Part shown: in pieces, positions 4,851 to 64,000 of the stretch
Layout: the number at the start of each line of letters is the position of its first letter
Position numbering within the stretch: the stretch's first letter is position 1
Assembly: GCA_025453395.1 (NCBI GenBank)
Contig: JALOQK010000001.1
Location: forward strand, 166,313 to 230,312
Reading direction: 5' to 3'
Source of the DNA: Candidatus Omnitrophota bacterium
GTDB taxonomy: Bacteria > Omnitrophota > Gorgyraeia > Gygaellales > Profunditerraquicolaceae
DNA length: 64,000 nucleotides
Made by a program: the position numbers and the translations under genes
The notes under the pieces: generated by a model
Databases searched by the model: none
The model's input: the letters and a program-made list of their open reading frames with translations, nothing else
What the model was told of the DNA's origin: nothing

Positions 4851-4985
4851 AAAAAAACTAAAAACCAAAATCCCAATAGCATCAGAAGCGAAAAGCTTAA
4901 AGCGAAAAATGCAAAACTATAATTCAAAATTAAAAATTTTTAATTCTACGCTGTAGTTTTACGCTTTGCACTTTAAGTTTTTAGC
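4851..4985. repeat. Copy B of the MITE/REP-like element
   Basis: Same core, with an aagcgaaaag...aaagcgaaaaa left arm and a TACGCTgTaGTTTTACGCTTTGCac right arm. Its right end encodes the last ~10 aa of NadE (KAKNLKCKA). Confidence 0.55.
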
Positions 4986-5702
4986 TTTTAAATAACATAT
5001 TTTCGGCCCTTGCCTCTTATGCAAAGAACAGGCCATCATTTTCTTTACCTTATCTACTTTTTGCTTAGAGGTCTTTGGTTTACTTTTATTCTCCATACAT
5101 TCAAGTATGCCATCAAGTTCATTATAAGTAATCCCCATTTCGCCTTCATCGGTCTGGCCCGGCCAAAGCCCGGCAGTAGGGGCCTTGGTGATAATCTTTT
5201 CGGGAATCCCCATTTCCCAAGAAAGGCGCCTAACATCTTTTTTCAGCAAATCTGCTATGGGCAGGATATCTGTTCCTCCGTCGCCATATTTAGTAAAATA
5301 CCCCACGCTTAATTCTGATTTATTGCCTGTTCCGGAAACTAAATACCCGTAGGTATTGGCAAAATAATACAAAGTCATCATCCTTAAGCGCGGTTTCAAA
5401 TTTCCTAAGGCTAATTTGTTGCCTTTGGGCAAAGCATGAAAAAATAATTTATAAACTTTTGATAAATCTACGATCTTATAAGAGATCCCAAGCGCCTTAG
5501 CAGTAAGAAGCGCGTCTTTTAGATCTTGAGGGTTACTTTGTATGGGCATCATCAATCCTAAGACTTTATTTTTCCCTACCGCCTCTTTTGACAATGCTGC
5601 CACAAGCGCGGAATCTATCCCGCCAGACAAGCCTAGAATGATACCCTTGGCACCAGCCTGTTTAACTTGGCTGCGCATCCAATTTATAATCTTCTTTTTC
5701 AT
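4959..5702 (-). CDS. nadE: NH3-dependent NAD+ synthetase
   Basis: PP-loop motif LGLSGGIDSALVAAL and a KYGDGGTDILPIADL block, with a length typical of NadE. The C-terminus extends into repeat B. Confidence 0.75.
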   Translation of the reverse strand: MKKKIINWMRSQVKQAGAKGIILGLSGGIDSALVAALSKEAVGKNKVLGLMMPIQSNPQDLKDALLTAKALGISYKIVDLSKVYKLFFHALPKGNKLALGNLKPRLRMMTLYYFANTYGYLVSGTGNKSELSVGYFTKYGDGGTDILPIADLLKKDVRRLSWEMGIPEKIITKAPTAGLWPGQTDEGEMGITYNELDGILECMENKSKPKTSKQKVDKVKKMMACSLHKRQGPKICYLKAKNLKCKA

Positions 5703-7737: not shown

Positions 7738-7832
7738 CGAAGCTAAAAATTAAAAGCGAAAAAGGTAAAGCTATAATTCAAAATTTAAAATTTTTAATTT
7801 TACGCTATAGTTTTTCGCTTTACGCTTTACGC
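7738..7832. repeat. Copy C of the MITE/REP-like element
   Basis: taAAAGCGAAAAAggtaaagcTATAATTCAAAATTTAAAATTTTTAATTTTACGCTATAGTTTTTCGCTTTACGCTTTACGCT. Its terminal inverted repeats are AAAGCGAAAAA and TTTTTCGCTTT. It lies between the two pstB genes. Confidence 0.6.
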
Positions 7833-13009: not shown

Positions 13010-13690
13010 TTATTTTGCTTCTTTTTCACCAGCGCATGACTTAACGCAGACTCCGCATATATATTGATCCACCAATCTTTGTTTCTGGAACTGTTTTAAC
13101 TTCTCAAAACATTTCATATGGTCAAAATCTTCTTTTTTCTCTTTAATTGCCTGCGCGGGGCATATTTTCAGGCAAGAAAAGCATTTCCCGCAGGATTCAC
13201 CAGAGGGCTTATCGGCCTTAAGCGGCATATCAGTAAGAATAGTAATAAGGCGCATTTGGCTGCCATATTTCTTATTCACCAAAAGATTATTTCTGCCTAT
13301 CCAGCCTATCCCCGCAAGGGCCGCTATTTTCTTATGCGATAAATGCGCGGACTGCTTTTGCCAATCCACTATCTGGGAGGCGGGAATGCTTAAAGCGCGG
13401 AAACCTTTTTTCTGAATATGCCTGGCAACACGCAAAGATAGCTGATCCAAAAACATATTCACGCTTCGGTAATGATGAAAATAAAGCCGCGTGGGAGCAT
13501 CCTCTATATCTTCAAGAACAGCGCTTGATAAACACACCCCCAAAGATATAGCAAACTTTAACTTTTCTTTGATTTTATTAGACAGAATTAACTCTTCTTT
13601 AAGATGGCCTATATCGCAAACCCCAAAAACATCCGCGCCTGAATCAAGAGAGAATTTCTTAAGCGAAAGGTAAGCTTTAGCCTTATCCAT
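13010..13690 (-). CDS. QueG-like (epoxyqueuosine reductase family) 4Fe-4S protein, short form
   Basis: DUF1730-like block AALAGIGWIGRNNLLVNKKYGSQMRLITILTD and ferredoxin motifs CGKCFSCLKICP and CGVCVKSC. At 226 aa it is shorter than canonical QueG and lacks the C-terminal HEAT region. Confidence 0.5.
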   Translation of the reverse strand: MDKAKAYLSLKKFSLDSGADVFGVCDIGHLKEELILSNKIKEKLKFAISLGVCLSSAVLEDIEDAPTRLYFHHYRSVNMFLDQLSLRVARHIQKKGFRALSIPASQIVDWQKQSAHLSHKKIAALAGIGWIGRNNLLVNKKYGSQMRLITILTDMPLKADKPSGESCGKCFSCLKICPAQAIKEKKEDFDHMKCFEKLKQFQKQRLVDQYICGVCVKSCAGEKEAK

Positions 13691-15596
13691 GATTTTTCTT
13701 CAGGTGAACCATTAAAATAGAGATTGCAACCGGAGTAACCCCGGAAATACGCGAGGCATGCCCTAAATTCAAAGGCTTCAAATTAATAAGCTTCTCTTTT
13801 ATCTCACGCGAAAGCCCGTTAATTGCTTTATAATTTATTTCTTCCGGAATACGGATTTTTTCAAGGTGCTTGAAACGTTGCACCTGCGCAAGCTGCCGCT
13901 TAATAAAACCGCTATATTTTACCTCAATTTCCACTTCCCGCAAAGCAAAATCGGGAATTTCTGATATCTGCGGGGCAAAACTGCCCAAATCCTTAATCCC
14001 CACTTCCGGGCGCTTCAGGATATCTTCCAAAGACGTTGTTTTTTGCAAGCTTCTGGTGCCTAAACTTTCCAATATTTTGTTTATTTTATCTGCCGGCTTA
14101 ACGCGATGACGATTCAATAAATTTATCCCGCTTATTACAGCCTTCTCTTTGGCTTGTGTTTTATTATACTCTTTTTTGCTAACCAAACCCAAATCAAACC
14201 CATGTTTCCTAAGGCGCAAGTCCGCGTTATCCTCGCGGATAATAAGGCGGTATTCCACGCGCGAGGTAAACATCCGGTATGGCTCCTGGGTGCCCTTGAC
14301 CACCAAATCATCAATCAAAACCCCGATGTAACTGGTGCTTCTATCCAAAATAAACCTTTCTCTTTTTTGACAAGACAAACCGGCATTGATCCCGGCAATT
14401 AACCCAAGACTGGCAGCCTCTTCATAACCGGTAGTGCCGTTGATCTGCCCGGCTAAAAAAAGATTTTTAATGCGTTTGGTTTCAAGCGTAGGAAAAAGCT
14501 GTGTTGGAGAAACCACATCGTGCTCAATGCCATAGCCAAAACGCAATACCTTCGCCTCCTCTAAACCCTCTATCGCATGCAAAAACTTAAGCTGCACATC
14601 TTCAGGAAGGCTGGTAGATAAGCCATTAGGATAAATTTCATTGCCTGCTCTTGCTTGCGGCTCTAAAAATATCTGATGCCTGGCGCGCTCGGGAAAACGC
14701 ACGATCTTATCCTCTATTGACGGGCAATAACGCACGCCGGTAGATTTAATAATGCCGGCGTAAAGAGGAGAACGGTTAAGATTATCGGCAATAATTTTAT
14801 GCGCCTTTTGATTGGTATGGGTAATATGGCAGGCAAGCTGTTTTAGATTTATTTTAGAACTGGAAAATGAAAATGGGGCAGGCGGATTATCGCCTTCCTG
14901 GATGATGGTGCGGGAAAAATCTATTGTGTTTTTATCCAAACGCGGGCAAGTCCCGGTCTTAAAACGCAAAATATCAAATCCCAGGGCCTTAAGGTTGTTT
15001 GATAAATCTATTGCCGCCGGCTCATTGATCCTTCCGGCAGAATGATGCTCTAGGCCAATATGCACTATGCCATTTAAAAATGTGCCCGCAGCGATAACTA
15101 CGCAGGATGAATATAATTCTTCCTTGTCAGTTGTTTTAACCCCGCAAACCTTATCCGCTTGAATAATAAGAGAGGAAACTTGCGCTTCTTTTATTGCCAG
15201 GTTCTTCTGCTCTGATAAAAGCTTGCGCATATATTCATTATACGCGTACATGTCTATCTGGGCGCGGGATGACTGCGCTGCCGGGCCCTTTGAAGAATTC
15301 AATATTCTAAATTGTATCGCGCAAAAATCAGCAGCCTTTCCCATCACCCCGCCAAGCGCGTCTATTTCTTTTACAAGCTGGCCCTTGCCTACTCCTCCGA
15401 TAGCCGGGTTACAACTCATCAAGCCTATGTCCTTGGCGCTTAAAGTAATAATTAAAGTCTGGCATCCCATGCGCGCGCAGGCTATGCTCGCTTCAATGCC
15501 GGCGTGGCCGGCGCCGACGACAATCACATCAAAAAAACATGGGGACGGTTCTGTTTTCTTAAAAACAGAACCGTCCCCTTTATTTTTTTCCTTCAT
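13683..15596 (-). CDS. mnmG: tRNA uridine-5-carboxymethylaminomethyl modification enzyme MnmG (GidA)
   Basis: FAD motif DVIVVGAGHAGIEASIACARMG, MnmG length, and the C-terminal GidA-associated domain. The first ~18 codons are encoded by a palindromic repeat (see findings), so the start is uncertain. Confidence 0.9.
   Translation of the reverse strand: MKEKNKGDGSVFKKTEPSPCFFDVIVVGAGHAGIEASIACARMGCQTLIITLSAKDIGLMSCNPAIGGVGKGQLVKEIDALGGVMGKAADFCAIQFRILNSSKGPAAQSSRAQIDMYAYNEYMRKLLSEQKNLAIKEAQVSSLIIQADKVCGVKTTDKEELYSSCVVIAAGTFLNGIVHIGLEHHSAGRINEPAAIDLSNNLKALGFDILRFKTGTCPRLDKNTIDFSRTIIQEGDNPPAPFSFSSSKINLKQLACHITHTNQKAHKIIADNLNRSPLYAGIIKSTGVRYCPSIEDKIVRFPERARHQIFLEPQARAGNEIYPNGLSTSLPEDVQLKFLHAIEGLEEAKVLRFGYGIEHDVVSPTQLFPTLETKRIKNLFLAGQINGTTGYEEAASLGLIAGINAGLSCQKRERFILDRSTSYIGVLIDDLVVKGTQEPYRMFTSRVEYRLIIREDNADLRLRKHGFDLGLVSKKEYNKTQAKEKAVISGINLLNRHRVKPADKINKILESLGTRSLQKTTSLEDILKRPEVGIKDLGSFAPQISEIPDFALREVEIEVKYSGFIKRQLAQVQRFKHLEKIRIPEEINYKAINGLSREIKEKLINLKPLNLGHASRISGVTPVAISILMVHLKKNHG
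15541..15578. repeat. Palindromic hairpin element, copy 1 (GGGGACGGTTCTGTTTT-ctta-AAAACAGAACCGTCCCC)
   Basis: Perfect 17 bp stem. It is flanked by T7 on the minus strand and by TTTATTTTTTT on the plus strand, giving a terminator-like shape in both directions. It lies inside the 5' end of mnmG, 28 nt after the nrdJ stop. Confidence 0.7.
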
Positions 15597-15605
15597 TTCA
15601 AAAAC

Positions 15606-18600
15606 CTAACACTTAGAATAACCGCAATGGCACTTCACGCATCCTTCTTCATGCCGAAGCGTACCTCCGCAATCCGGACAAACCCCCACAATATCAGCGC
15701 CATTATCACTGACAGACGAAGGTTGATCATCATGCGAATGTTTCATGGCAATCTCAGCCATCTCTTGAACTAGTTTTTGAGTAGGGACATTTACCAGCCG
15801 CTTTTCAATAACCCGGGCAATAGCATCAGCGCAGGAAAAGATTCTTTGCCCCTTTTCCCACGAAGGGCTGGGGCAGCGGATATTGCGCAACTGCTCAATA
15901 ATAGATTTTACCTCTACGCCGGCTCTGAAACTCAAAGAAACAAGCCTGCCAATGGCTTCTAATTGCGAACCTGCGCAGCCGCCGGCTTTGCCCATCTGGG
16001 TAAAAAGCTCAAAAGGCCTGGCCTCCTGATCCACGTTAATGGTCACATACAAATTGCCGCAGCCGGTAGCAACTTTAGTGGTAGTGCCACTTATAACTTC
16101 GGGGCGCGGACGAGGGCTTATTTTGCCTGACTCCACAATATTAACCACCATAGACTCTTGAACTTTTTCTTTATCTTTCCTGGCAATATTTAAAACCTGC
16201 TCCTGACGGCTGTTATCGCGGTAAATAGTCAACCCCTTGCAATTTAATTCATAGGCCATCAAATAGGCCTTTCTCACATCTTCAATAGTAGCATCATTTG
16301 GAAAGTTTATCGTCTTAGAAGTAGCATTATGAACGTATTTCTGAAAGGCAGCCTGCATACGCACGTGCCACTCAGGAGTTATGTCATGGGCAGTGACAAA
16401 CACGCGCTTCACATCAGCAGGGACTTCTTCAATATCTTTTAAAGAAGCATGCTCCGCTATTTTCTCCATCAATTCCCGGCTGTAAAACCCTCTTTCCTTG
16501 GCAACTTCTTCAAATAAAGGCTCTACCTCCACAAGTTTATCATTATCCATAACATTTCTATAATAAGAAATCGCGAACAACGGTTCAATCCCAGAAGAAC
16601 AGGGACCGGCAATAATGCTTATCGTCCCGGTGGGAGCGATAGTAGTCAAGGTGGCATTGCGCAAATAAGATCCGCCATCTTTTTTATCATAGATACTTCC
16701 CTTGAATGCCGGGAAAACGCCTCTGTCTTTGGCAAGCTCCTGGGATTTCTTGGTTGCTTCATCAAGAATAAACGCCATGAGTTTCTCAGCTAATTCCACC
16801 GCTTCTTCAGAATTATAAGGAATGCCTAAACGGATTAAAAGGCTGGCCCAGCCCATCACCCCTAAGCCGATTTTACGGGTGCGCTTAGTAGCTCTTTCTA
16901 TATCGGGAAGCGGGAATTTATTTACATCTATAATATTATCCAAGAAATGCACTGCGGTTTGAGTAACCCTTCCTAATCTCTCCCAGTCTATTTCGATCTT
17001 CGCGCCATTTTTCTTATACATAAGGTCCAAATTAATGGAGCCCAAATCACAGCTTTCATAGGGCAAAAGAGGCTGTTCGCCGCAATCAAGTGAAATAAAT
17101 CCATTTGAAATAAAGGTTAGGGTCTGCGGTTCTGTTAAATCGTATACTGTTTCTTCCCCGCATGAAGTTACGCTTTCAACCGTTTCCTCAAAACTATCTT
17201 TAAAATAATCCTTGCTATAAAACTTTGCTGTCTTTTGAGAATGCCTTTCGCACATAAAACCGACTATTTCTAAAAATTTCATAACGCTTTCTCTGGATAT
17301 TTCTAATTCAAAACAAACACCGTCAGTCTTATAATTTTTTTCCTCGCCAGATTTTGTTAAGTAAGCGAAACAAGTTCTTTCCCCCCTATTTCTATCGTAT
17401 ATTCGTGATTTTATCCCCAAATTCAACAAGATAATTTGAACTCCTTTAAGAAGTTTATCGGATTTCGCAGTAAGCCGGACATATGAAGAATGCTCTTCTT
17501 TATAGTTAACCGTCCCGTCGGCAGTAAATAACCCCTGCAGAAAACCAATAATTGCTTCCTTAGGCGCCGTATAAATTGATTCCGGCACTTCTTTGCCTTG
17601 GGCCTTACAAACTTTTACTCCTAACTGCTTAAAGAAATCTACGAAATATTTACTATGATACGAAAGATGATACACATTATTTTCTCTTAATACCTCCTTG
17701 ATATCCTGCCCATAGAAACCATTGAGAATAGGTTTCATATATTCGAGAACGGTTTTATCATCCTGGCTGAATGTGAAACCTGCGCGGCAATTTTTATCGC
17801 CATCCCTTAGCCAACCATCGCCGACAAGCAGCCCTAACACCTGCCCAAGCTGCTTGGACCATTTTTCGGGCAAATTTAATTTATAGCCTCTGCCATTTTC
17901 TCCTTTGAATTCATTACAAACTTCAAAAGGCAGGCTATTGTCGGAATTAAAAGGTATGCCCTGCGGCTGGATAATAACCTTATCTTTATGCAAAGTTAAA
18001 TCTTGAACCTTTACCCAGCCATGCGTAGTCATAAGCTGATGATCCGCGGTGGCAACTAATTCAAACCCGGATTTTGTCGTAACTTTGAAAACTGGCTTAA
18101 CGCCTGTTTTAAAAGCCGCGGAAATCACATTTTGCGAAAGAGCCAATTTTGCCTCTGTGGCTACAGCTGCGTGCTCTTTGCTTCCATAAAGAATTTCTCC
18201 TACCCTATCGTCGGTAAATATAGCTATGCCGCCGGAACTGTAATTCTTGGCCAAATCCCTCATCCTGACTAACCCTTTTTCAGTAGAAATAAAAGTATCC
18301 CCTGTGACGCATGGGTTGGTGCTTTGAATTTGGCCTAATTTCGGAGTGGGATTGCCTTCGTTCATGCGATCAATAAAAATTATGCCGGGTTCTCCATTTT
18401 TATGCGCCTGCTTAACAATCAGATCAAAGACCTCTCTTGCGGAAATCTTCTTTACCAGCTTATCATTATGCGGCTCGCGCACCTCATACTCCTGCCCGCT
18501 TTGAAGCTTATCCATAAACTCGTCGGTAATAGCCACCGAAATATTAAAATTGGTGATCTGGTGGTTATCTTCTTTGCAGGTAATAAATTCTAAGATATCC

Positions 18601-19130
18601 GGATGGTCAACCCTTAAAATACCCATGTTCGCGCCGCGGCGTGTGCCGCCCTGCTTGACTGCTTCGGTAGCTGAATCATAAACTTTCATAAAAGATACCG
18701 GACCCGATGCCACTCCTCCAGTAGTTTTAACCACAGCATTCTTAGCGCGCAATTTAGAGAAAGAAAATCCTGTGCCGCCGCCTGATTTATGGATCATCGC
18801 GGTTGCCTTAAGCGTTTCAAAAATAGATTCCATAGAATCTTCTATCGGCAAGGTAAAGCAGGCGCTTAATTGCCCCAGTTCCCTGCCAGCGTTCATAAGG
18901 CAGGGGGAATTGGGCATGAACTCCAATGAAGCCATCACCTGATAAAAGTTTTTTTGTGTTAAAGCGACGTCTTCATTGCTTGCGCCGTAAAACCTGTCCG
19001 CGGCGGCAATAGCAGAACAGACCCGCTCAAACATCTCTTGCGGGCTCTCAATAACTTTACCGTTTGCATCCTTCTTAAGGTACCTTCTTTCTAATACTTT
19101 CAGGGCATTATCGGAAAGCCGTGTGTTCAT
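15606..19130 (-). CDS. nrdJ: Class II (adenosylcobalamin-dependent) ribonucleotide reductase, intein-containing precursor
   Basis: The exteins carry class II RNR blocks: the STNP|...|CGEQPLLPYESCDLGSINL active-site region and a C-terminal Cys-rich tail CPDCGGTLRHEEGCVKCHCGYSKC. The 1174 aa length is explained by a ~409 aa insertion. Confidence 0.85.
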   Translation of the reverse strand: MNTRLSDNALKVLERRYLKKDANGKVIESPQEMFERVCSAIAAADRFYGASNEDVALTQKNFYQVMASLEFMPNSPCLMNAGRELGQLSACFTLPIEDSMESIFETLKATAMIHKSGGGTGFSFSKLRAKNAVVKTTGGVASGPVSFMKVYDSATEAVKQGGTRRGANMGILRVDHPDILEFITCKEDNHQITNFNISVAITDEFMDKLQSGQEYEVREPHNDKLVKKISAREVFDLIVKQAHKNGEPGIIFIDRMNEGNPTPKLGQIQSTNPCVTGDTFISTEKGLVRMRDLAKNYSSGGIAIFTDDRVGEILYGSKEHAAVATEAKLALSQNVISAAFKTGVKPVFKVTTKSGFELVATADHQLMTTHGWVKVQDLTLHKDKVIIQPQGIPFNSDNSLPFEVCNEFKGENGRGYKLNLPEKWSKQLGQVLGLLVGDGWLRDGDKNCRAGFTFSQDDKTVLEYMKPILNGFYGQDIKEVLRENNVYHLSYHSKYFVDFFKQLGVKVCKAQGKEVPESIYTAPKEAIIGFLQGLFTADGTVNYKEEHSSYVRLTAKSDKLLKGVQIILLNLGIKSRIYDRNRGERTCFAYLTKSGEEKNYKTDGVCFELEISRESVMKFLEIVGFMCERHSQKTAKFYSKDYFKDSFEETVESVTSCGEETVYDLTEPQTLTFISNGFISLDCGEQPLLPYESCDLGSINLDLMYKKNGAKIEIDWERLGRVTQTAVHFLDNIIDVNKFPLPDIERATKRTRKIGLGVMGWASLLIRLGIPYNSEEAVELAEKLMAFILDEATKKSQELAKDRGVFPAFKGSIYDKKDGGSYLRNATLTTIAPTGTISIIAGPCSSGIEPLFAISYYRNVMDNDKLVEVEPLFEEVAKERGFYSRELMEKIAEHASLKDIEEVPADVKRVFVTAHDITPEWHVRMQAAFQKYVHNATSKTINFPNDATIEDVRKAYLMAYELNCKGLTIYRDNSRQEQVLNIARKDKEKVQESMVVNIVESGKISPRPRPEVISGTTTKVATGCGNLYVTINVDQEARPFELFTQMGKAGGCAGSQLEAIGRLVSLSFRAGVEVKSIIEQLRNIRCPSPSWEKGQRIFSCADAIARVIEKRLVNVPTQKLVQEMAEIAMKHSHDDQPSSVSDNGADIVGVCPDCGGTLRHEEGCVKCHCGYSKC
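17085..18311 (-). mobile_element. Intein with a LAGLIDADG homing endonuclease, inserted before the catalytic Cys of the NPCGE motif of NrdJ (aa 274-682)
   Basis: N-terminal splice block CVTGDTFISTEKG, block B ATADHQLMTTHG, LAGLIDADG motifs LGLLVGDGWL and IIGFLQGLFTADGTV, and C-terminal block FISNGFISLD followed by extein Cys. The terminal residues are Leu-Asp rather than the canonical His-Asn. Confidence 0.75.
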
Positions 19131-36591: not shown

Positions 36592-37854
36592 TTACCTCTT
36601 TTTATTGGTCGAACTGGCTTCTTGAGGATTTTTCCAAAATTCCCTGATCACATAATAAGCCTGACGGGGAATCCTTTTATTTAAACCCTGCCCGCCGGCA
36701 GACTGTGCGCCTTCTGTTTCTTCGGACAATCCCACGATCCCAAACCATTCCTCATTCATATTCTTATTCCCGGGCGCCTGGTTATCAAAATAATAACTTC
36801 CGTTAGACCAGTTGGAACCGGTGTCATGAACTTTCCAGCTGCCGGGGTTAGATTCATTATTCTTCCACCATTCATCAGTCCATTCAAACATAAAACCGCC
36901 CAAACAATTTCCTTCTCCTTGGCTGCTGGAATAAAGATTGTTGTAGATCTGCCGCCACTGTGATTCCAAAAAGAATGCCTGCATCTGCTGGTCTTCTTTT
37001 TGGTTGTAGGCGTCATAACAATCTGCGCCAAACTCAGATAAGAATACCGGAAGGTCAAAAGTTGTCTTTAAAGAGCTAAAGAAATTACCGAAACTTTTCC
37101 CTCGGTAAATAATACAAGCAATAATATCAATGTCTTTACAAACCAAAGAAGCAGTATCAAGGCCAAACAATTCACCGTTTCCTAAGGCAACCGGATGGGC
37201 TGTGTCAATTTTCTTTATTTCCCGGGCTATATCATTAACATACGAATAATAAATCTTGGCGCGCATAGATTGCTGGGCACGGGGGTCTTTTTCATTGTCT
37301 ATTTCTTCTGTGGACCACGGGTTAACCCTGCCCAAACAGGAATAATTATTTTCGTTACCCAAGATCCAGCACAACACCCCGGGTTCATCTTTGTAAAGGC
37401 GCACCATTTCCAAGACTTCATTCTTTATTTTTTTCTGGAATTCTTGATTTCCGTAGAATGGACAGGGATAATTCCAAAACCCCAGCCAGCTTCCTAACGC
37501 GGTGCGAATACCAAATTTCTCATAGAGATCTCTTATGACAAGCCTGACTTTCTCCGGGTCTTCGCCTGATTCATACAAGCGCACTGCGTTAATGCCCATA
37601 TCCTGCATTAGTTTGCCGTCTACCAACCACGGCTTATGGGGGTCCTGATACCATTCATATTCATGGCCTTGCCCCACAGAAACAGGATTATAGCAAACCC
37701 CTTTGATAACAAATGGTTTTCCATCTACCATTAATTGATACCGGCTATTCGTTGATTTTTTTATATAAACAGAGGGCTTAGGCGCAGCAAAAGAAACACC
37801 AAAAGATACCGCCAAAAAGAACAGAAACAAGGGGACGGTTCTATTTTTCAGCAT
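36592..37854 (-). CDS. Secreted clan GH-A (TIM-barrel) glycoside hydrolase
   Basis: Signal peptide MLKNRTVPLFLFFLAVSFGVSFAAP. Catalytic blocks GINAVRLY, WILGNENNY (acid/base NE) and FLSEFGADCYD (nucleophile E). The ORF track extends it to 37929 through the hairpin repeat; the start is placed at the ATG in the hairpin loop (37854). Confidence 0.7.
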   Translation of the reverse strand: MLKNRTVPLFLFFLAVSFGVSFAAPKPSVYIKKSTNSRYQLMVDGKPFVIKGVCYNPVSVGQGHEYEWYQDPHKPWLVDGKLMQDMGINAVRLYESGEDPEKVRLVIRDLYEKFGIRTALGSWLGFWNYPCPFYGNQEFQKKIKNEVLEMVRLYKDEPGVLCWILGNENNYSCLGRVNPWSTEEIDNEKDPRAQQSMRAKIYYSYVNDIAREIKKIDTAHPVALGNGELFGLDTASLVCKDIDIIACIIYRGKSFGNFFSSLKTTFDLPVFLSEFGADCYDAYNQKEDQQMQAFFLESQWRQIYNNLYSSSQGEGNCLGGFMFEWTDEWWKNNESNPGSWKVHDTGSNWSNGSYYFDNQAPGNKNMNEEWFGIVGLSEETEGAQSAGGQGLNKRIPRQAYYVIREFWKNPQEASSTNKKR

Positions 37855-37900
37855 AAAAATAGAACCGTCCCCTTTATTCGAACCGTCCCCTTTATTCGAA
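37831..37900. repeat. Palindromic hairpin element, copy 2 (GGGGACGGTTCTATTTTT-cagcat-AAAAATAGAACCGTCCCC), plus a duplicated cgaaccgtcccctttatt tail
   Basis: Perfect 18 bp stem. The loop contains the probable GH start codon (the minus strand reads ...TATTTTTATGCTGAAAAATAGAACCGTCCCC). Confidence 0.7.
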
Positions 37901-37921
37901 TTCCGAATCCTAAATTCTGTT

Positions 37922-62300: not shown

Positions 62301-64000
62301 TCCACAGCCCAAACGCGTTGCGCCTCCAAACTGGAAATTAATCGCTTCAAGATAACGCAGAAACGCAGATTCCTTAAAATAATATCAACCCCCTGCTCCA
62401 TACGGGCCAATCCACACCTAGGCCCATACTTATGTTCCTGAAGGCCTTGTTTATAATCTTTATCTAAGCAGCCTAAAACTGCGGCTATGGTTTCCCGAAC
62501 ACCTATATCTGCCTCCATTAAAGCCTGCCTAATCATTGCTTCGCCTTGTTCGCCGGAAACTATTTGCTCTTCCATCTCGGCTATCCTTTTTTCAAGCGGT
62601 TCTCCACCCGGCAACTGCGCAAACCCGCGGTATTTCAATCTCTGCCTGAAAGTTAGAATAAAGGAGACGGTTCTATTTTCTAGAAAACGCCAGAGGTAAA
62701 TATAAACGGGGACTGCGATAATAAATAACAGGGGAATAAATAACAGGTATGGCGAGATAGCAGCTGTCTGCATCGCATCTACCGGCGCTCCGGTAGGCTG
62801 GGCAGGAATAAGGTATCTACTTGCGGCAACCGCCGCGCCAAGACAAGCTACGCTCAGCATTATGTAAACTTCTCCGAGGCCTTTTTCTTTTCTGTCCCCG
62901 TCCGCGCCGGAGCTAATAGCATTAGTAGAAACTTCAAGAACAGCCATTTTAATTTTATTCGATATAAAGCTATACTGTTGGCGTATTTCGCTTTTTTCTT
63001 TTTCAATGAATATGACATTATTCAGCTTCGCAATAAGCTGCTTCACGCACCCGGGTATGGAATTTCCCCAAGGATTACGTAAGCTGAAAAAATATTTATT
63101 ATAAATATCGTCCAACTGTTGTGCCGCAAGCTTAAATAAATTAAGCTTTAACAAATCTTCTAGGTTAAAATTTGCCCAAGACTGGGCAAGCGCATGTAGT
63201 ATATCAAAAGGCATTTCGCCGAAATGGCCTTCTTCTAAGAATAATTTTGCCGCGCCTTCTAAGGCATCCTTTACGGATATCTGCCCTTTCTTCAGCCGAC
63301 AGAGAATTTTGGAAAAATCAGCACAAAGGGCATCCACAATTTCCCTTCTTTCTTCTTTAGAAAGCTGGAATAAATAAGTACGATTAGCGCTAATCTTTTC
63401 TACTGCCGCATAAATAGCGCTTCCTTTAAGCAGAATATGACTGTTGAGCGCAAAATCTAATTTTTCTAAATTATGGATTTGGTAGAGGCGGGTAACAGCT
63501 TCAAAAGCCGGCAATTTACGGGAAACAAATATAACTCTAAAGAAATACGCCCAAAGCCGCGGCGAACCGCGCACAAAATTATTTGTAATTGCGAATTCTC
63601 TGTAAACATTAAAAAATACCTCTGTTTTTTCTTTATTTATTCCGTTTAAGCGATTCCTGCGCCACGCTTTAGAGAAAACTTTCCTAAACTCTACCAAATA
63701 ATTAGCATCTTTAGCCTGCCTAAGCATATAGCACAAAATCACATCTAACTCCCGAGTATATTTTGCCTTATTCCGCAGCATTCCCCCAATTTGCCCGAGG
63801 AAGGTATGGAATCCAGTGAATTCCGGCTCCTCCTCTTTAATTGCAGGCTCATTAATCAGGCCTATTTTCTTGGCATAAATACAAACTGAAGTTTTCTTGC
63901 GAATTAATTCCGTTAATTTTTCTTCAATACGTTTATTCCTCTGCCATACCCCGGCGCAACGCATAAGAAACTTTCTATTTTCTGCCCTAAAGATAAAACG
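47330..64000 (-). CDS. Giant ORF (at least 5544 aa, 5' end probably beyond the window) encoding a membrane-anchored multi-enzyme protein with radical SAM x2, SAM-methyltransferase, HAD, GNAT and HEAT-like motifs
   Basis: A single uninterrupted reading frame of 16.6 kb in AT-rich DNA. The motifs found are:
- CxxxCxxC radical-SAM cores at ~58524-58550 (VTYKCCFNCADC) and ~52139-52180 (LTCNSGCDIC).
- Methyltransferase motif I VLLIGPGRGFEA at ~56641-56680, with FDVVIF downstream.
- HAD motif VLVWDGVVVDS at ~55305-55340.
- GNAT motif FQRNGIGSKLM at ~50556-50595.
- Four copies of a 2-TM anchor module, G(L/A)GEV..ML.V.CLGA...A..YL..AQ(P/S)TG(A/P)P + TM, at ~62700-62900, 58790-58915, 48960-49110 and 47960-48110.
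There is no stop codon in the 36 nt upstream of the first in-window ATG (63964). Confidence 0.8.
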   Translation of the reverse strand, partial: RFIFRAENRKFLMRCAGVWQRNKRIEEKLTELIRKKTSVCIYAKKIGLINEPAIKEEEPEFTGFHTFLGQIGGMLRNKAKYTRELDVILCYMLRQAKDANYLVEFRKVFSKAWRRNRLNGINKEKTEVFFNVYREFAITNNFVRGSPRLWAYFFRVIFVSRKLPAFEAVTRLYQIHNLEKLDFALNSHILLKGSAIYAAVEKISANRTYLFQLSKEERREIVDALCADFSKILCRLKKGQISVKDALEGAAKLFLEEGHFGEMPFDILHALAQSWANFNLEDLLKLNLFKLAAQQLDDIYNKYFFSLRNPWGNSIPGCVKQLIAKLNNVIFIEKEKSEIRQQYSFISNKIKMAVLEVSTNAISSGADGDRKEKGLGEVYIMLSVACLGAAVAASRYLIPAQPTGAPVDAMQTAAISPYLLFIPLLFIIAVPVYIYLWRFLENRTVSFILTFRQRLKYRGFAQLPGGEPLEKRIAEMEEQIVSGEQGEAMIRQALMEADIGVRETIAAVLGCLDKDYKQGLQEHKYGPRCGLARMEQGVDIILRNLRFCVILKRLISSLEAQRVWAVDILKNMPQQDKLCYVDKFISRVKLCNTEQEKSFLISGLLAMGIEEALASVIELAASVEDESSQAAFEALKAYPDSPRIAELAKLQLISVLEEEKAKPDEVIRVIKIIELGEPDKAVDAMLLKIDKRFEPSSKSYILALYALAQRLRVDKTAGLWPKINEEERSAIIRCLTLIGTYEAVRILILLAKGENARDRDLSKSKLGELLRLNNKHALACRQEIINIAAAYGKLNRKAGQDISDKAFSQGQLIFVLFVLAITVILGTALKNVFEYSDNASILISTGAAASLLLIWQVCACDLKTFWEDFKQTCSAGKEQAISFGFIIFFLSAATAAFIFIPSKLLAFVLSVGILSLGAKVFNVSALINCAIGRLSRLGIGKSLLRILQAPQNEKQMAEKKAFQEKQDTMRRMRRHNSDKPESIIFYQQVLEKEIPEHLTDDPDIKQLRESLLNQTNECILRAIRLTEQQRQDAALSKPAQQLRKEQKAALSQELENLKAGLSGLEPLGQFEAQLMNILKRFPKDFQRLPQIEKFREDTGKFLACKKIDSDTSRAKIQNAENINGKIVNAVKKAYAELDALRADSFISLDALNQGVSAICQRVLNVIPRKHVPMKIVQEFLENAKYAENKLLFDLVESTLKKHLEENGLRENKYAVCLGLMKNIIVERDKLIYEYKLRQDFDLFISWLIEGLPFEQIKAKMQEGEFFPEFDPLISKVENALAVNPKDIIDQAGAGSLCEDGQGNIKEKARNFIPGLFRSLPPEERLLNYLTYDCWLAKYLRGSLLNMESKVLVELNLCVIKAMQSAAGMCRKLCNEYSFQSAASKVEMSSVINRVIAVIDQRYTTIDKEVKIKIKELTQARKDIDALNLEKAFIPELEIAKNSLAQTVEMLAFIHARDSSWGEYAQYQKWQEDKKQSLQAAIEMAREREKARAASAILKLKVTSLLNISDPGYSGRGKLLLWCAQINNPQANNPVKSLVQIYKALNPTIHEEAGLRENIKNNVLRVIKNYLEKNAEWIFQDDWPADADDRIKRDFPYQAQHFRNPLPKPTAQQPIKPEVEIKKAEVEKSGILILEEQILTLETEKLSPATAISLCKDALFRLASLEKSLPMGEVRGYQSRLLRVQQRYEKKSHGRPMTNLIPPVIATLFLSLVGAVSAGQVLTAQNIPAPPGQAFPFYLCLLFPVLLVIIAVIFLYGPSLRNKPDLDPVGTSDESLLKIPFSFKSKNGIGTATIALRILNAIMDGRVAEDINVMVTYKCCFNCADCLAACACKEGGFWDVPKEALYSLFEQLRGCKLVHIVGTGEPLCYGKDKYFEGGVSRDFLDVVRYAAQRIEVVRIVTNAYLVPEDIKVAKEFFAQFPKNVVWLVSADEYHEKEMREKTGKQLSEVIKTMNKLARRGKIKLMFNVRYANKTGREVDDMTWRLGIRPSFPSLVLKLLLFVVSLGSLDFYGLGKTKTFINRIIGQGNAVKNESYSLRLSFADIQEHARDLDKMMFFVDPQGNLVICDHVAYMAMQERKEFKNLISNSVIGNVSEESMASLFLDKLLKSRYENIIRRFNYFDEGTLAWLVLAVYFASCGMPLEAGYYMDQVFSKEIQQIDKLEELLARFIFFQESPALNDFIFGQMRKHTEKVRFSFISQLAVKSTVKAQARFVNFEQIIFSLLNIFSLLAAIVYGSFADTDGLSDISAFGMLAYTVIFFISIAFISFTYNERIPVFSNLIYYILSLFAWRFKAMKANSPAHGNGDVPQKGTLLNRGGALGGQVTGAAGSPLFHHQPSPADIDFSFGFGGRLGPNYLGARAFDGVRDPLYESHKFGWFFADGSIEGKLIEGEKNGLVDTVRKNPYDCEKNINRDFWGLNMLFDGDITMDIQTIKISIGQRVVRVLLIGPGRGFEAFGLMATCGNNVDITALAKEDLIYSNPEDLQDRFHNFSETGMAITVSEAQEYINRLKSRQIIYDMEKGIPFADNSFDVVIFGSAVMEYIKDKYSALKEALRVCRIDGFVYCVLYPLSIRINDLSAIQYFVKQFTSSIVKTYRMAPYLRFKKQEDIKFPYLLIERVLESKGFVSGATQYSVFYRERQFNSPASVAQLPIQPTRLETVNNIKALQDNGSKKFDIIPAQQKDAAVQKTTKDSVICSQNVIRYETFSFLSGLAEKCRDVESIGYALIVVNSFVNHEDLAVAIHAKYIQRIFEIRLSMLSQGLALFADQAMTAKNNKQGGDDPATKKKLDAAASLIKESQKGLAALTPRGIKTFSHILSAFFLISLMPADFWPQEMLVSLPKGFWALTILFCLLFSARPYLSSIFSRMRSKHPAKVIKITDVKPRIKVIVLVWDGVVVDSLDCVFFVWGAMYDRIMKGESRSYIPTKEGLKNGIDYVNACGGGSLYAQIGDVIARARTKKVRNLRTNQEYVDEFCDLILKSVKEKIGRGDNIVIPETVKALCEIRRKFPGVRIIQTSGQPSVSLKETIRILGMEYFYDQIYGAYPLKSGIPHDKKTQIIALRKKYGLALNEIILFEDQAQGAREAKSAGALTAVIVTDPEKEKIFRKLNVDFIIRSEGINKDIIPYLGMRRISIPHIFASCALVTFVPLALAAKFPLFGFTLYFIFLACLLTAKFHIFRPAIRKLICDYWFGVQPAGCFTEKLKALGYAREASKIENNLRAEIIFDRSAYNLYAVYNKLGLIVSSDIQDKICVKWQEVKMIKGAFCDIYHVVEPETEGAILLGAISNPRVAYVGSENSGNGNGDVPQGDTLLNRGNAPTSPNMLGWRMLPAGIHLSEDMRQKNIYANMCCQRQLFQQAYSDGFNLTLPEIKMGGFEGIFRRFQHADFIALIQDWFFGVIADKKLLEFTYASCITSNVLLAKMLSAKFDLPIGKNRGAHLEIMPGFYSGPALKNGSHHYWIVLYDGNEKFFIDSAYGQFDQEYKNKIIIRADYEQALKDLFLQERPQLLLEKRISLVHAGQISEMLSSENAVIEQEIMPRFCKLYIAPKYKQAEILGGADLRDAFRIYKGDVYYPCAGHDAVSFMALVNLFPSARCFIFNDNFVQKEMSVSIPDKQDIQGIIKQLSEYFNWVGEALGEMAVKVIDPALLEINIGLNDKMRALLGRQNIKILYQINDFMQNQNKYGIVYVQGPGMAGRISKKSYFWKKVKIQVLRGGYLIVSEQTTRQPHLSRDIEWAANIMPNTCFSYWRSYIKPWRIYRINQTVFSKAKTPQQLSPEVSLADSNIDRGALTSPACSPERPKIKKQTIQPTRLETVNKANASGAGGRGLGATGSSLFHHLPSLSDIDIDFGGRLGPNFLGARDKNLIGHPFYGGKFRYLFADGSGASKVREIFGSQVIEDISDLDYSFQQRVEFLRREQFANLDIRINPYSNWVPKRILCVLSLTCNSGCDICMFSCDSGRKREMVLVDFYRATDFSGMGIRDPSLYISGGELSLRKDLHEIIAERNVCSLTTNASLMVTPEKAREFVLMIKKSRGSDSKFTFRISLDDSHLARPAISLIKIANLAEAVIRYYPEADIIINTLINITSGQTTWNFFQELSSRGLGVSFQMQHSFVEKNEQVIRRALRISQLSRIGRALDVYPDSVFEQCELSETKKRYYPGTTLAFDYRGDVSFADMYLVDHSPLVFGNALQEKWGSIIFRLRKDPLFLGFISDSQRILKFADEYCEGIVERINQGRPGTLLTFFYWLFSSPERKLYITYRFLNEYSKAGFLGQGAFSNLSNSQMKTLAQEQVGGLRRQYFPSGAPGSKQTPSSGEGVVLQSPVFIGLAALLAANHLDTWLSKLPFLIVFIFIAILSYGEYLLNKSSVVRKAGILRANLDDGIYNAADIVKLGPERLDKTARAMLCIEKLVFSNPATKPKIVNPAQHLVEEYKKRLLDNYVYLAVEKGDIVGFIRFSIYKETIANLQELAILPAFQRNGIGSKLMDSFVNALWGMSPRINTFRFMPSLKTNSGFFYYGKYFPRRSKGHSMALSWYLELNLPLRMCYKAVIHPIEKGCNGDKAHYSQSGPDLGIGGRLGPNYLGAQDKNLIGHPFYGGKFRYLFADGSGAEGREDRKARLEQITADFLKNHPGEKILLTQLAKLAGFKYCTLWRWKKEKGVILEGVSSAERGSKVSLAKFIKAAEEVAKDKGSKKFPLMEIRDKMNMKKHPSTFSNILARLRKAGIDPVEELRKKGIIATLPETGVRKTSPEIESLSARIKEALLKFKAGNFSSRKELSQGREKVRDLLVELCKENTGGEFIILRKEFNAILKEKKAQQEPVGAPSGLKIQAKQDEAVVEVKQIAIQKTDEFKVAKRLKPVPVTVDNRGDDFRIEEWERIFGKLDRKEYVKKMIIYHSDLHGKTLSGIIGLVVKIKDWPWLLYLLRQALKEGTTDKSALLFAKRALDEAAEKGKQNIKFVGAPGGAKKGLGEVCTMLGVVCLGAVVVAGAYLTQAQSTGPPDSHLGRASLYPVMTVPFLFVLAIKAFRYLQKLFQGKHNIKQFDWENALEAPWNEAVCDRKAQAAGPASENEKNYFHNQKQVREEFVQLLKEIHNGALTNFLDFKKRIIELNRIMLTGKDGNCIYIPPTFDHSLFEGCVYAEDKDAKVRGIAGSFEDSIGNTDKRLKIIFEDIKRFLLFPSVNHIADFYFHARPKNQYYIYQKANQSLFMGMSNAMLRMLGSSGIAHIISLDRIGYRFSSCEQFRPYFTSVVEANKTGKKFDFGDTILNSKEVSGSPAQDKKIGGALGTNSSPVIRNMLIPFTAAFIALGAKDLFAAGAYLAQAQPTGAPVQHTQFVSFPPYLLPVLLTIIVALGLMAIFSKNRAMPPDTDSDSMTLPKRVEVIEFSGTKVEIKEFHNNIFEAWLKNELLVRIEFIEKKNEKEETVSLDVCFWRVDLSSQSKDLVRSAIKYLTEYFMKGFPDTTQRKYFSHPVSLLQELFYRNLILLRTGTRNEDVFQKDAFSNRDGAPGDGQKLISRRGLNRGGFVRFARDKHDMDFDKYYFWLINADRNYPRRAAIWL

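Follow-up and report, generated by a model that had tools for sequence, protein, structure and literature searches.

The stretch of Candidatus Omnitrophota DNA analyzed here (contig JALOQK010000001.1, positions 166,313 to 230,312), whose whole length of 64,000 nucleotides (nt) is referred to as the window, carries two perfect hairpins and one isolated hairpin arm that belong to a single repeat family (Table 1). Copy 1 stands between a nrdJ-type ribonucleotide reductase gene and mnmG, within the first 19 codons of the mnmG open reading frame (ORF) as called, while copy 2 lies 50 nt past the stop of a gene coding for a 392-residue protein and among the first 33 codons called for a GH2-like ORF; all the genes neighboring both copies are on the minus strand. 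The feature itself was correctly observed in the original prediction, and its interpretation holds in part. The hairpins are not a family of terminators private to this genome: the same inverted pair of 12-nt cores, GGGGACGGTTCT…AGAACCGTCCCC, occurs in at least eight phyla and appears to be the cognate repeat of a clade of Y1 transposases that the prediction had missed. We consider it probable that the window hairpins are non-autonomous, gene-less dimers of the ends of a Y1 (TIRYT-type) element, similar to the REPINs formed by repetitive extragenic palindromes (REPs).

Table 1. Repeat copies in the window and the genes that adjoin or overlap them
Feature	Position	Strand	Description
Copy 1, whole element	15531..15588	.	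Outer A/T-rich arms AAAAAAACAT … TTTATTTTTT (+ strand) around a 38-nt perfect hairpin
Copy 1, hairpin	15541-15578		GGGGACGGTTCTGTTTT-CTTA-AAAACAGAACCGTCCCC; perfect 17-bp stem, 4-nt loop
Copy 1, forward core GGGGACGGTTCT	15541..15552	+	12-mer match
Copy 1, reverse core AGAACCGTCCCC	15567..15578	+	12-mer match
Copy 2, hairpin	37831..37872	.	GGGGACGGTTCTATTTTT CAGCAT AAAAATAGAACCGTCCCC; perfect 18-bp stem, 6-nt loop
Copy 2, tail and extra arm	37873..37897	+	TTTATTC tail (37873-37879), then second GAACCGTCCCCTTTATTC (37880-37897)
Solo arm (relic)	62663..62687	+	On the opposite strand, GGAGACGGTTCTATTTTC with its tail; keeps the frame of the 5544-residue ORF; encodes ENRTVSFI
mnmG ORF as called	13683..15596	-	637 residues; runs through copy 1 (codons 7-19)
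nrdJ-type ribonucleotide reductase gene	15606..19130	-	Stop at 15606-15608; copy 1 follows 27 nt later in the direction of transcription
GH2-TIM-barrel-like gene	36592..37854	-	Probable start ATG 37854-37852 in the copy 2 loop; listed ORF extends to 37929

The GC-rich stem predicted for copy 1 is indeed perfect over 17 bp, with a CTTA loop and a run of seven Ts on the minus strand, although two details required amendment: the stem is separated from the nrdJ stop by 27 and not 28 nt, and the homopolymer, which had been placed at 15527-15533, occupies 15531-15537. The stem is directly followed by TTTATTTTTTT on the plus strand and by ATGTTTTTTT on the minus strand, and an inverted-repeat search extends the whole element to 27-nt arms that are 89% complementary. 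A terminator pattern scan bore out the proposed bidirectional shape, copy 1 being terminator-like on both strands and copy 2 on the minus strand; a GC-rich stem-loop with an immediate U-run is therefore present in the window copies, by pattern only. Folding of the RNA, suggested as a check in the original prediction, yielded very stable structures for copy 1 (-37.2 kcal/mol on the minus strand and -32.1 on the plus strand, with z = -7.1 and -8.1, respectively, against shuffles), and the coding-sense strands fold at -37 kcal/mol for copy 1 and -48 for copy 2 (z about -6 to -7). Copy 2 was found where announced, with a perfect stem and a tandem extra arm: the 18-nt unit GAACCGTCCCCTTTATTC, comprising the 3' arm and its tail, closes the hairpin at 37862-37879 and is repeated immediately afterwards, the core being recognized in this extra arm at 37879-37890 with one mismatch in a 12-mer search. 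The relic reported inside the giant gene is a solo arm, in frame, identical to the copy 2 arm and tail at 23 of 25 positions. Chance can be dismissed as the origin of these copies, as had been claimed, since the 12-mer occurs six times in the window with at most one mismatch, against 0.09 expected, and none of 100 shuffles reached six. Repetition of a short palindrome far above chance, as in REPs and REPINs, is seen in the window and in two of the loci described below (L046 and L209), and copies 1 and 2 further show the inverted doublets forming a longer hairpin that are typical of REPINs. Rfam returned no match at the gathering threshold in the window or in eight repeat-rich loci, and only generic hairpin models, far under threshold, around copy 1.

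A scan of one genome per species for the pattern GGGGACGGTTCT-N6-30-AGAACCGTCCCC, in which 24 bases are specified, recovered the inverted core pair in at least 120 loci from at least eight phylum-level groups. Among the loci listed are members of the Bacillota (Lachnospiraceae, Syntrophomonas, Neobacillus and others), Bacteroidota, Actinomycetota and Omnitrophota, together with Planctomycetota, Elusimicrobiota, Aminicenantes and one delta-proteobacterium. The core is invariant, and each core is flanked by lineage-specific words (TGTCTC, TGACTC, TGTCAC, or A/T runs in AT-rich genomes) that match host composition and recur in alternating orientation. In many copies each half is itself a short stem built from the lineage word, the loop of which holds the invariant core, and stems of at least 5 bp enclosing the core were found in 33% of copies, as opposed to 5.7% of shuffled pairings. 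Because such core-in-loop stems are enriched across the family, the long hairpins of the window can be read as inverted dimers of this unit, that is, as having the REPIN architecture. Several copies per locus are present in some genomes (six hairpins in 8 kb of L046, several of them identical), and tandem arrays and nested palindromes also occur, with tandem arrays of arms in L012 and L122. The flanks display just a compositional bias and an NTG directly after the core (34% of 262 flanks, about 6% being expected), and no conserved GT[AG]G was found at the 5' foot of the hairpins. Outside AT-rich lineages the hairpins lack following T-runs, and the terminator pattern is not general in the family. 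A full-text literature search for the core string retrieved unrelated primers only. The hairpin was found on six viral contigs in all, one of which (L205, a 6.1-kb IMG/VR contig classed as viral) holds five complete hairpins within 6 kb. In Micropruina and other Actinomycetota (L021, L037, L093 and L102), a direct repeat of ~22-25 nt, such as CGCGCATGCGAATTCCGAACGCG, alternates with cores of either orientation, giving arrays and not simple hairpins; the 10-mer GAATTCCGAA also follows copy 2 (37897-37906), possibly by chance.

The lead to a transposase came from a relative of the window MnmG (P0015), the contig of which (L121) holds a gene for a 158-residue Y1_Tnp protein immediately upstream of mnmG and divergent from it, between two imperfect core-bearing hairpins in inverted orientation. 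Its product matches Pfam PF01797 (E = 4e-19) and has as its best NCBIfam match the REP-associated tyrosine transposase (RAYT), for which the Y1 proteins score 54-78 bits, below the cut-off of 80. A profile of the Y1 alignment gave a single, weak match in the PDB (4ER8, the E. coli TnpA-REP), and a phmmer search of the PDB with the L046 Y1 protein gave none. Y1 homologs are likewise encoded in exactly the two genome loci that are richest in cores: in L012, six tandem forward cores stand on one side of the Y1 gene and four reverse cores on the other, and in L046 there is one complete hairpin on each side. The three proteins carry the motifs expected of TIRYT or subclass 2.1 proteins (NHVH, WQ and YIETKP in L121; NHVH, FQ and YVHQNP in L012; NHVH, FQ and YILQNP in L046). 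By eye, a C-terminal tail resembling a helix-turn-helix (HTH) can be discerned in L012 (258 residues) and L046 (263 residues), and none in L121 and L122 (about 158 residues); among the Y1 proteins this tail is a feature of the Firmicutes.

The converse test started from 84 Y1 loci, 80 of them metagenomic and chosen by Y1 protein similarity only, to which L121, L012, L046 and the cultured isolate Acetoanaerobium noterae (L209) were added. Eleven of the 84, all from genomes other than that of the window, carry GGGACGGTTC, about 0.1 being expected by chance, and have the Y1 gene flanked by inverted repeats in the manner of a REPtron. A forward core lies 62-331 nt upstream of the Y1 start in all eleven, a reverse core is found near the Y1 stop (from 20 nt before it to 218 nt past it) in six of the nine loci with enough sequence, and the opposite geometry (reverse core upstream, forward core downstream) was observed in none of the eleven. 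More generally, inverted repeats with a GGGG(A/T)C start enclose nearly all 80 metagenomic Y1 genes; they lie just after the stop on the 3' side and, in most loci, about 45-100 nt before the start on the other. These repeats fall into sub-types (GGGGTCAGGYCTTG, GGGGACAGGCTACTT, GGGACACATCCC, GGGGACGGAGTAG, GGGGACGTTCACC and the present GGGGACGGTTCTC) that track the Y1 protein tree, and most relatives (GGGGTCAG…, GGGGACAG…, GGGACACA…) fit the motif GGGGWSAS, from which the present sub-type, GGGGACGG, deviates at position 7. The Y1 gene of A. noterae is bracketed alike, and nine monomer copies, in each of which the lineage word forms a short stem and the core occupies the loop, are scattered over the surrounding 40 kb, where the commonest 12-mers all come from the element. 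As in TIRtrons, the terminal repeat is also present away from the gene, whether singly, in dimers or in clusters, and the window copies are no exception. The A. noterae record itself (NZ_CP154629.1) is a 2.63-Mb replicon filed as a plasmid in PLSDB, with four annotated features, and looks chromosomal. In another locus (L126, 339-704) the Y1 frame stops after about 121 codons and homology continues beyond it, which probably reflects a decayed gene that is still flanked by cores. Plasmids and phages were rejected as cross-phylum vehicles, given that the Y1 type is rare in them (12 of 72,556 plasmid records and one phage record) and that so few viral contigs bear the hairpin.

Hairpins from other genomes tend to avoid genes, as long open frames span only 12 of 98 (12%) but take in 61% of positions drawn at random from those loci, and this predominantly extragenic location is that of REP/REPIN-RAYT systems. 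The earlier description of the repeats as embedded in gene starts is correct insofar as the ORFs as called run through the copies, but it does not hold as a property of the family. The core contains no stop codon in any frame and, for this reason, ORF callers extend genes through the hairpins, so that the embedding is mostly an annotation effect. The called start of P0015 (L121 4001), MRTVPNN, includes RTVP, which is translated core, and an ORF of L046 (59-892) has been called through a hairpin, acquiring the spurious N-terminus …TTGDGSRRREPSPVD…. Public gene calls that start inside or upstream of hairpins are a systematic annotation artefact of this repeat family, and recurrent false N-termini containing GDGS, EPSP or RTVP are explained by its stop-free hairpins. 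Overall, the repeat family extends across phyla, is extragenic, has a monomer/dimer architecture and is linked both physically and phylogenetically to one Y1 clade.

The site of copy 1 offers a direct comparison between hairpin and element. Two related Omnitrophota contigs (L121 and L122) present a complete Y1 element immediately upstream of mnmG and, hence, the copy 1 site holds a full element in related Omnitrophota. The order in L121 is nrdJ, a phosphomutase-family gene, Y1, mnmG, Fer4, PHO4 and PhoU, and that of the window is nrdJ, copy 1, mnmG, Fer4, PHO4, PhoU and PstS; L121 has one gene more, of the phosphomutase family, separating nrdJ from the Y1 element, and the order from mnmG to PhoU is the same in both. 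Copy 1 is either the remnant left after gene loss or a gene-less copy at a favored site. A further contig (L208) harbors at the same nrdJ-mnmG junction a symmetric variant of the hairpin (168-220), GGGACCGTTTCT…AGAAACGGTCCC. This variant departs from the canonical core by one substitution and a 1-nt insertion that are mirrored exactly on both arms, which suggests arm-to-arm homogenization or a distinct sub-family.

If the window hairpins are gene-less dimers of Y1 element ends, each arm would be equivalent to the terminal repeat found at either end of a single-gene Y1 (HUH tyrosine) unit, with the forward core upstream of the gene and the reverse core after its stop, and each hairpin to two such ends joined head to head with the gene absent between them. 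The TnpA of IS200/IS605 and the TnpA-REP of E. coli recognize single-strand hairpins and act through a 5'-phosphotyrosine intermediate. By analogy, the Y1 enzyme would recognize the folded single strand, cut it and rejoin it, and its action would generate and maintain the dispersed copies, be they singles, inverted dimers or tandem arrays. In this AT-rich Omnitrophota lineage the flanking words are A-runs and T-runs, which give the dimer the shape of a bidirectional intrinsic terminator. It seems reasonable to postulate that these dimers probably attenuate or terminate transcription between co-directional genes, such as nrdJ and mnmG, and that they do so as a by-product or through local co-option, since T-runs are not general in the family. 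Copy 1 would, in addition, have displaced the usual mnmG start, and MnmG would begin at an upstream ATG.

Several considerations weigh against this interpretation. The 64-kb window contains no Y1 gene, the mobility of the copies (transposition, excision and empty sites) is postulated from sequence comparison, and cleavage and binding of the cognate repeat by Y1 are predictions drawn from the co-variation of repeat sub-type and protein clade. The hairpins have no 5' GTAG at their foot, which is the hallmark of classical REPs, the core departs at position 7 from the published TIRYT motif, and Quentin et al. 2018 (PMC6006769) report no REP-like hairpins for subclass 2.1. The presence of an invariant 12-mer beside Y1 proteins that are only ~40% identical to one another is not fully explained. 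Finally, the succession of forward core, gene and reverse core would also be expected from a gene inserting in the middle of a hairpin. In that case the hairpins would be independent of the Y1 gene and merely its preferred insertion target. Some insertion sequences are known to target REPs, and landing in the center of a dimer yields exactly the geometry seen. We nevertheless find this alternative unlikely. Repeat sub-type co-varies with protein clade throughout the family, with all sub-types sharing the GGGG(A/T)C start, the Y1 gene is the sole cargo, and the upstream repeat keeps a fairly constant distance from it in most loci. Moreover, insertion into a target does not account for the origin of the core that unrelated phyla have in common, and the Y1 group is low-copy and not IS-like (PMC5581495).

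The hairpins could also be intrinsic terminators evolved by the host and nothing more, their likeness stemming from local duplication or from convergence, and their situation in the window, 27-50 nt past a stop codon and between co-directional genes, is compatible with that role, as are the result of the pattern scan and the very stable folding of both copies. This reading is, however, very improbable when confronted with the identical 12-mer pair in at least eight phyla, the fixed orientation in which the pair brackets Y1 genes, the lack of T-runs after hairpins outside AT-rich lineages and the existence of solo arms and tandem arm arrays. The evidence for a mobile repeat refutes the "nothing more", and a terminator role may persist as a secondary effect. 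An invariant short core in variable surroundings, often present as inverted pairs, is likewise what a binding or uptake signal for a host factor would look like, and DNA uptake sequences also pair up as terminators. Uptake sequences are, however, lineage-specific and far denser, we know of no single host factor common to these phyla, and both the association with the Y1 gene and the co-variation with Y1 phylogeny point to the transposase, so that a host-factor signal is hardly credible. Mimicry of the tRNA T-arm (the duplicated arm contains GGTTCGAAT) and parS half-sites (some loci contain TGTTTCAC words) were also considered and, like DNA uptake sequences and CRISPR-like arrays, rejected, because they fit neither the variable words nor the Y1 link.

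Copy 1 has a direct bearing on the start of mnmG. The only in-frame starts in the window are the ATG at 15596-15594, located ahead of the element in an unstructured, A/U-rich stretch, and a GTG at 15527-15525, the ATG at 15540-15538 being out of frame with mnmG and part of the element. MnmG begins with MxxYDVIVIG in 94 of 120 relatives, the closest of which is 68% identical to the window protein; compared with this pattern, the long ORF adds 19-20 residues and a start at GTG 15527 would give MIVVGAGHAG, shorter than all 120. The original prediction had pointed out that six Ts instead of seven would restore a canonical start, MFFDVIVVGAGHAG, from the ATG that follows the stem, and had contemplated a miscalled homopolymer, a new N-terminus created by the element or a regulated start. 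A protein derived from six Ts would have 618 residues, a length typical of relatives (617-619 residues). Yet the MnmG of a second, independent assembly (P0083; 65% identical) presents the same extension, MKKNGDGSVFFKKTEPSPCFYDV (…KKTEPSPCFYDV), which stays in frame and differs by one codon in the loop (VFKKT versus VFFKKT). Since every back-translation of the P0083 peptide leaves the post-core ATG out of frame, a miscall is unlikely. Both genomes, moreover, keep the long ORF open and in the mnmG frame. In addition, the ATG and the T-run lie in the outer arm of the element and recur elsewhere: copy 1 reads gaaaaaaataaa-core…core'-atgttttttt on the minus strand and an unrelated locus of another Omnitrophota genome (L070) reads gaaaaataaa-core…core'-atgttttaaaa, that is, with the same outer flanks (AAAAATAAA-core…core'-ATGTTTT), which are shared as well by the unrelated L051. 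Judging from these flanks and from the frequency of NTG after the core, the post-stem ATG and the seven Ts are part of the element and not a shifted native mnmG start, and we regard a homopolymer error as highly improbable.

Of the options contemplated, the creation of a new MnmG N-terminus by the element is the most likely one left. The L208 MnmG, which belongs to the same 90% cluster as P0083 (cluster-mate P0241), retains a normal start, MHNFDV, 30 nt past the variant hairpin; as read from these genomes, the nrdJ-mnmG junction turns over between close relatives and the usual start is gone in the window and in P0083. A search with the N-terminal 68 residues only found no further MnmG carrying the extension, which is accordingly lineage-restricted. 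We lean slightly towards translation of MnmG from ATG 15596 through the hairpin, which would contribute about 20 element-encoded residues, and towards a similar role for the other copies, in the manner of the in-frame inserts of Rickettsia palindromic elements (RPEs), a view that is compatible with the dimer interpretation. The sole in-frame alternative to ATG 15596 is a GTG that yields a product shorter than that of any relative, the frame is preserved in P0083 in spite of the one-codon difference in the loop, and the L208 start illustrates what the window and P0083 have lost. In copy 2, the ATG in the loop (37854) is in frame and gives MLKNRTVPLFLFFLAVSFGVSFA, which reads as a typical signal peptide; its charged N-terminal head would be supplied by the 3' arm. 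The giant ORF, for its part, runs through the relic in frame. Di Nocera et al. 2013 (PMC3733652) report REPs at the N-termini of ORFs. On the other hand, 22 codons may stay open by chance, the window and P0083 do not count as independent cases, initiation at the GTG is possible, and the family as a whole avoids coding sequence.

Among known systems, the closest description is that of the TIRtron/TIRYT class, which Quentin et al. 2018 (PMC6006769) equate with TnpA-Y1 subclass 2.1, and of the group 1 RAYTs, and the sequence features of the present family fit this class. TIRtrons and TIRYTs have been described (Di Nocera et al. 2013, PMC3733652) as carrying a GGGGWSAS terminal motif and repeats found as singles, dimers and clusters, some of them moderately abundant, and group 1 RAYTs as spanning 21 bacterial classes, including Clostridia, with flanking 16-mers at about 12 per replicon (Bertels et al. 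2017, PMC5581495). TIRYT or subclass 2.1 proteins present NHVH, W[EQ] or FQ, and YIELNP or Y[IV]HLNP motifs, with a C-terminal HTH-like extension and a median length of 238 residues. The present family shares with them the presence of one Y1 gene of the HUH type, whose product has NHVH, WQ/FQ and Y(I/V)xxNP motifs and, often, a C-terminal tail that looks HTH-like, the inverted GGGG(A/T)C-starting repeats around it, the moderate number of singles, dimers and clusters elsewhere, and the wide and patchy taxonomic spread. It differs in that its repeat, GGGGACGGTTCT, has G and not A at position 7 of GGGGWSAS, that its Omnitrophota Y1 proteins (158 residues) lack the HTH tail, that it is documented here in Omnitrophota and many Bacillota, Bacteroidota and Actinomycetota, and that its dispersed copies are perfect hairpins, whereas Quentin et al. 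(PMC6006769) reported no hairpins of the REP kind for subclass 2.1. The class is thereby extended to Omnitrophota and to many gut and rumen Firmicutes and Bacteroidota.

The REP/REPIN-RAYT systems of the Gammaproteobacteria (E. coli TnpA-REP and Pseudomonas REPINs) similarly have short palindromes outside genes, the inverted doublets of which fold into a longer hairpin, together with a Y1 gene within inverted repeats (the REPtron) and copies between co-directional or convergent genes. In contrast to them, the present family lacks the GTAG/GTGG guide tetranucleotide, its 12-mer is common to several phyla instead of species-specific, and its Y1 proteins belong to a different subclass and score under the NCBIfam RAYT cut-off. 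With IS200/IS605 and their gene-less derivatives (PATEs) it shares a Y1 HUH enzyme that presumably acts on folded single-stranded ends, and short non-autonomous derivatives composed of two ends. Nevertheless, the features that define membership in IS200/IS605 (a Y…Q motif, near-identical genes in multiple copies and, often, tnpB) were not found: the tyrosine motif is of the Y…NP/KP type, no tnpB partner is present and none was called beside the L121 Y1 gene, NCBIfam IS200 scores are 22-30 bits for a cut-off of 55, the gene is low-copy and chromosomal, as its scarcity in plasmid and phage records indicates, and the ends are mutually inverted repeats and not two different subterminal hairpins. 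RPEs and intragenic REPs resemble the present repeat in being stop-free palindromes able to sit in frame and add about 20 residues, and according to Di Nocera et al. (PMC3733652) such inserts are more often at N-termini. Here, on the contrary, in-frame placement is the exception (12% of copies) and translation is a prediction from sequence. The core also contains the tetranucleotide CGTC (AGAAC-CGTC-CCC), reminiscent of the CGTC-tagged REPs, a class reported without a dedicated transposase and described by Di Nocera et al. 2013 (PMC3733652) as having an 8-9-bp stem with an unpaired CGTC at one of its ends, together with a loop of 4-5 nt and a CCA tail. Measured against that description, CGTC is internal to the 12-nt core of the present family, a CCA tail is lacking and stems and loops differ, and the resemblance is probably coincidental.

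These results allow orphan "terminators" of Omnitrophota and of many Firmicutes and Bacteroidota genomes to be assigned to a specific Y1 transposase clade, and they touch on a gap in the literature, since subclass 2.1 (group 1 RAYTs), the largest RAYT-like group and the most poorly understood, has been reported without cognate REP-like hairpins. The co-variation of protein clade and repeat sub-type provides a ready-made series for the study of how these HUH enzymes read DNA. More tentatively, the invariant core over at least eight phyla and the sub-types of each clade might constitute a natural "recognition code" series, group 1/subclass 2.1 might keep REPIN-like hairpins well outside the Proteobacteria, and Omnitrophota might have co-opted them both as bidirectional terminators between the genes of operons and as coding modules (the MnmG N-terminus and the signal-peptide head), a combination that we view as possible and still doubtful.

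Other features of the window were noted in passing. The giant ORF that harbors the solo arm (47330-63964, minus strand, 5544 residues) has no Pfam match in its first 800 residues, and the arm is located about 430 codons in, just past a hydrophobic stretch. The nrdJ-type ORF (15606-19130, minus strand) encodes 1174 residues and contains, by eye from the translation, an intein-like insertion extending from …NPCVTGDTFISTEKG… to …TFISNGFISLDCGEQ…. An unrelated second palindrome family, AT-rich, imperfect and ~100 nt in length, fills two intergenic spacers at 4886-4987 and 7741-7821; its two copies, with the words AAAGCGAAAAA…TATAATTCAAAATT and AATTTTTAATT…CGCTTT, align with each other in both orientations.

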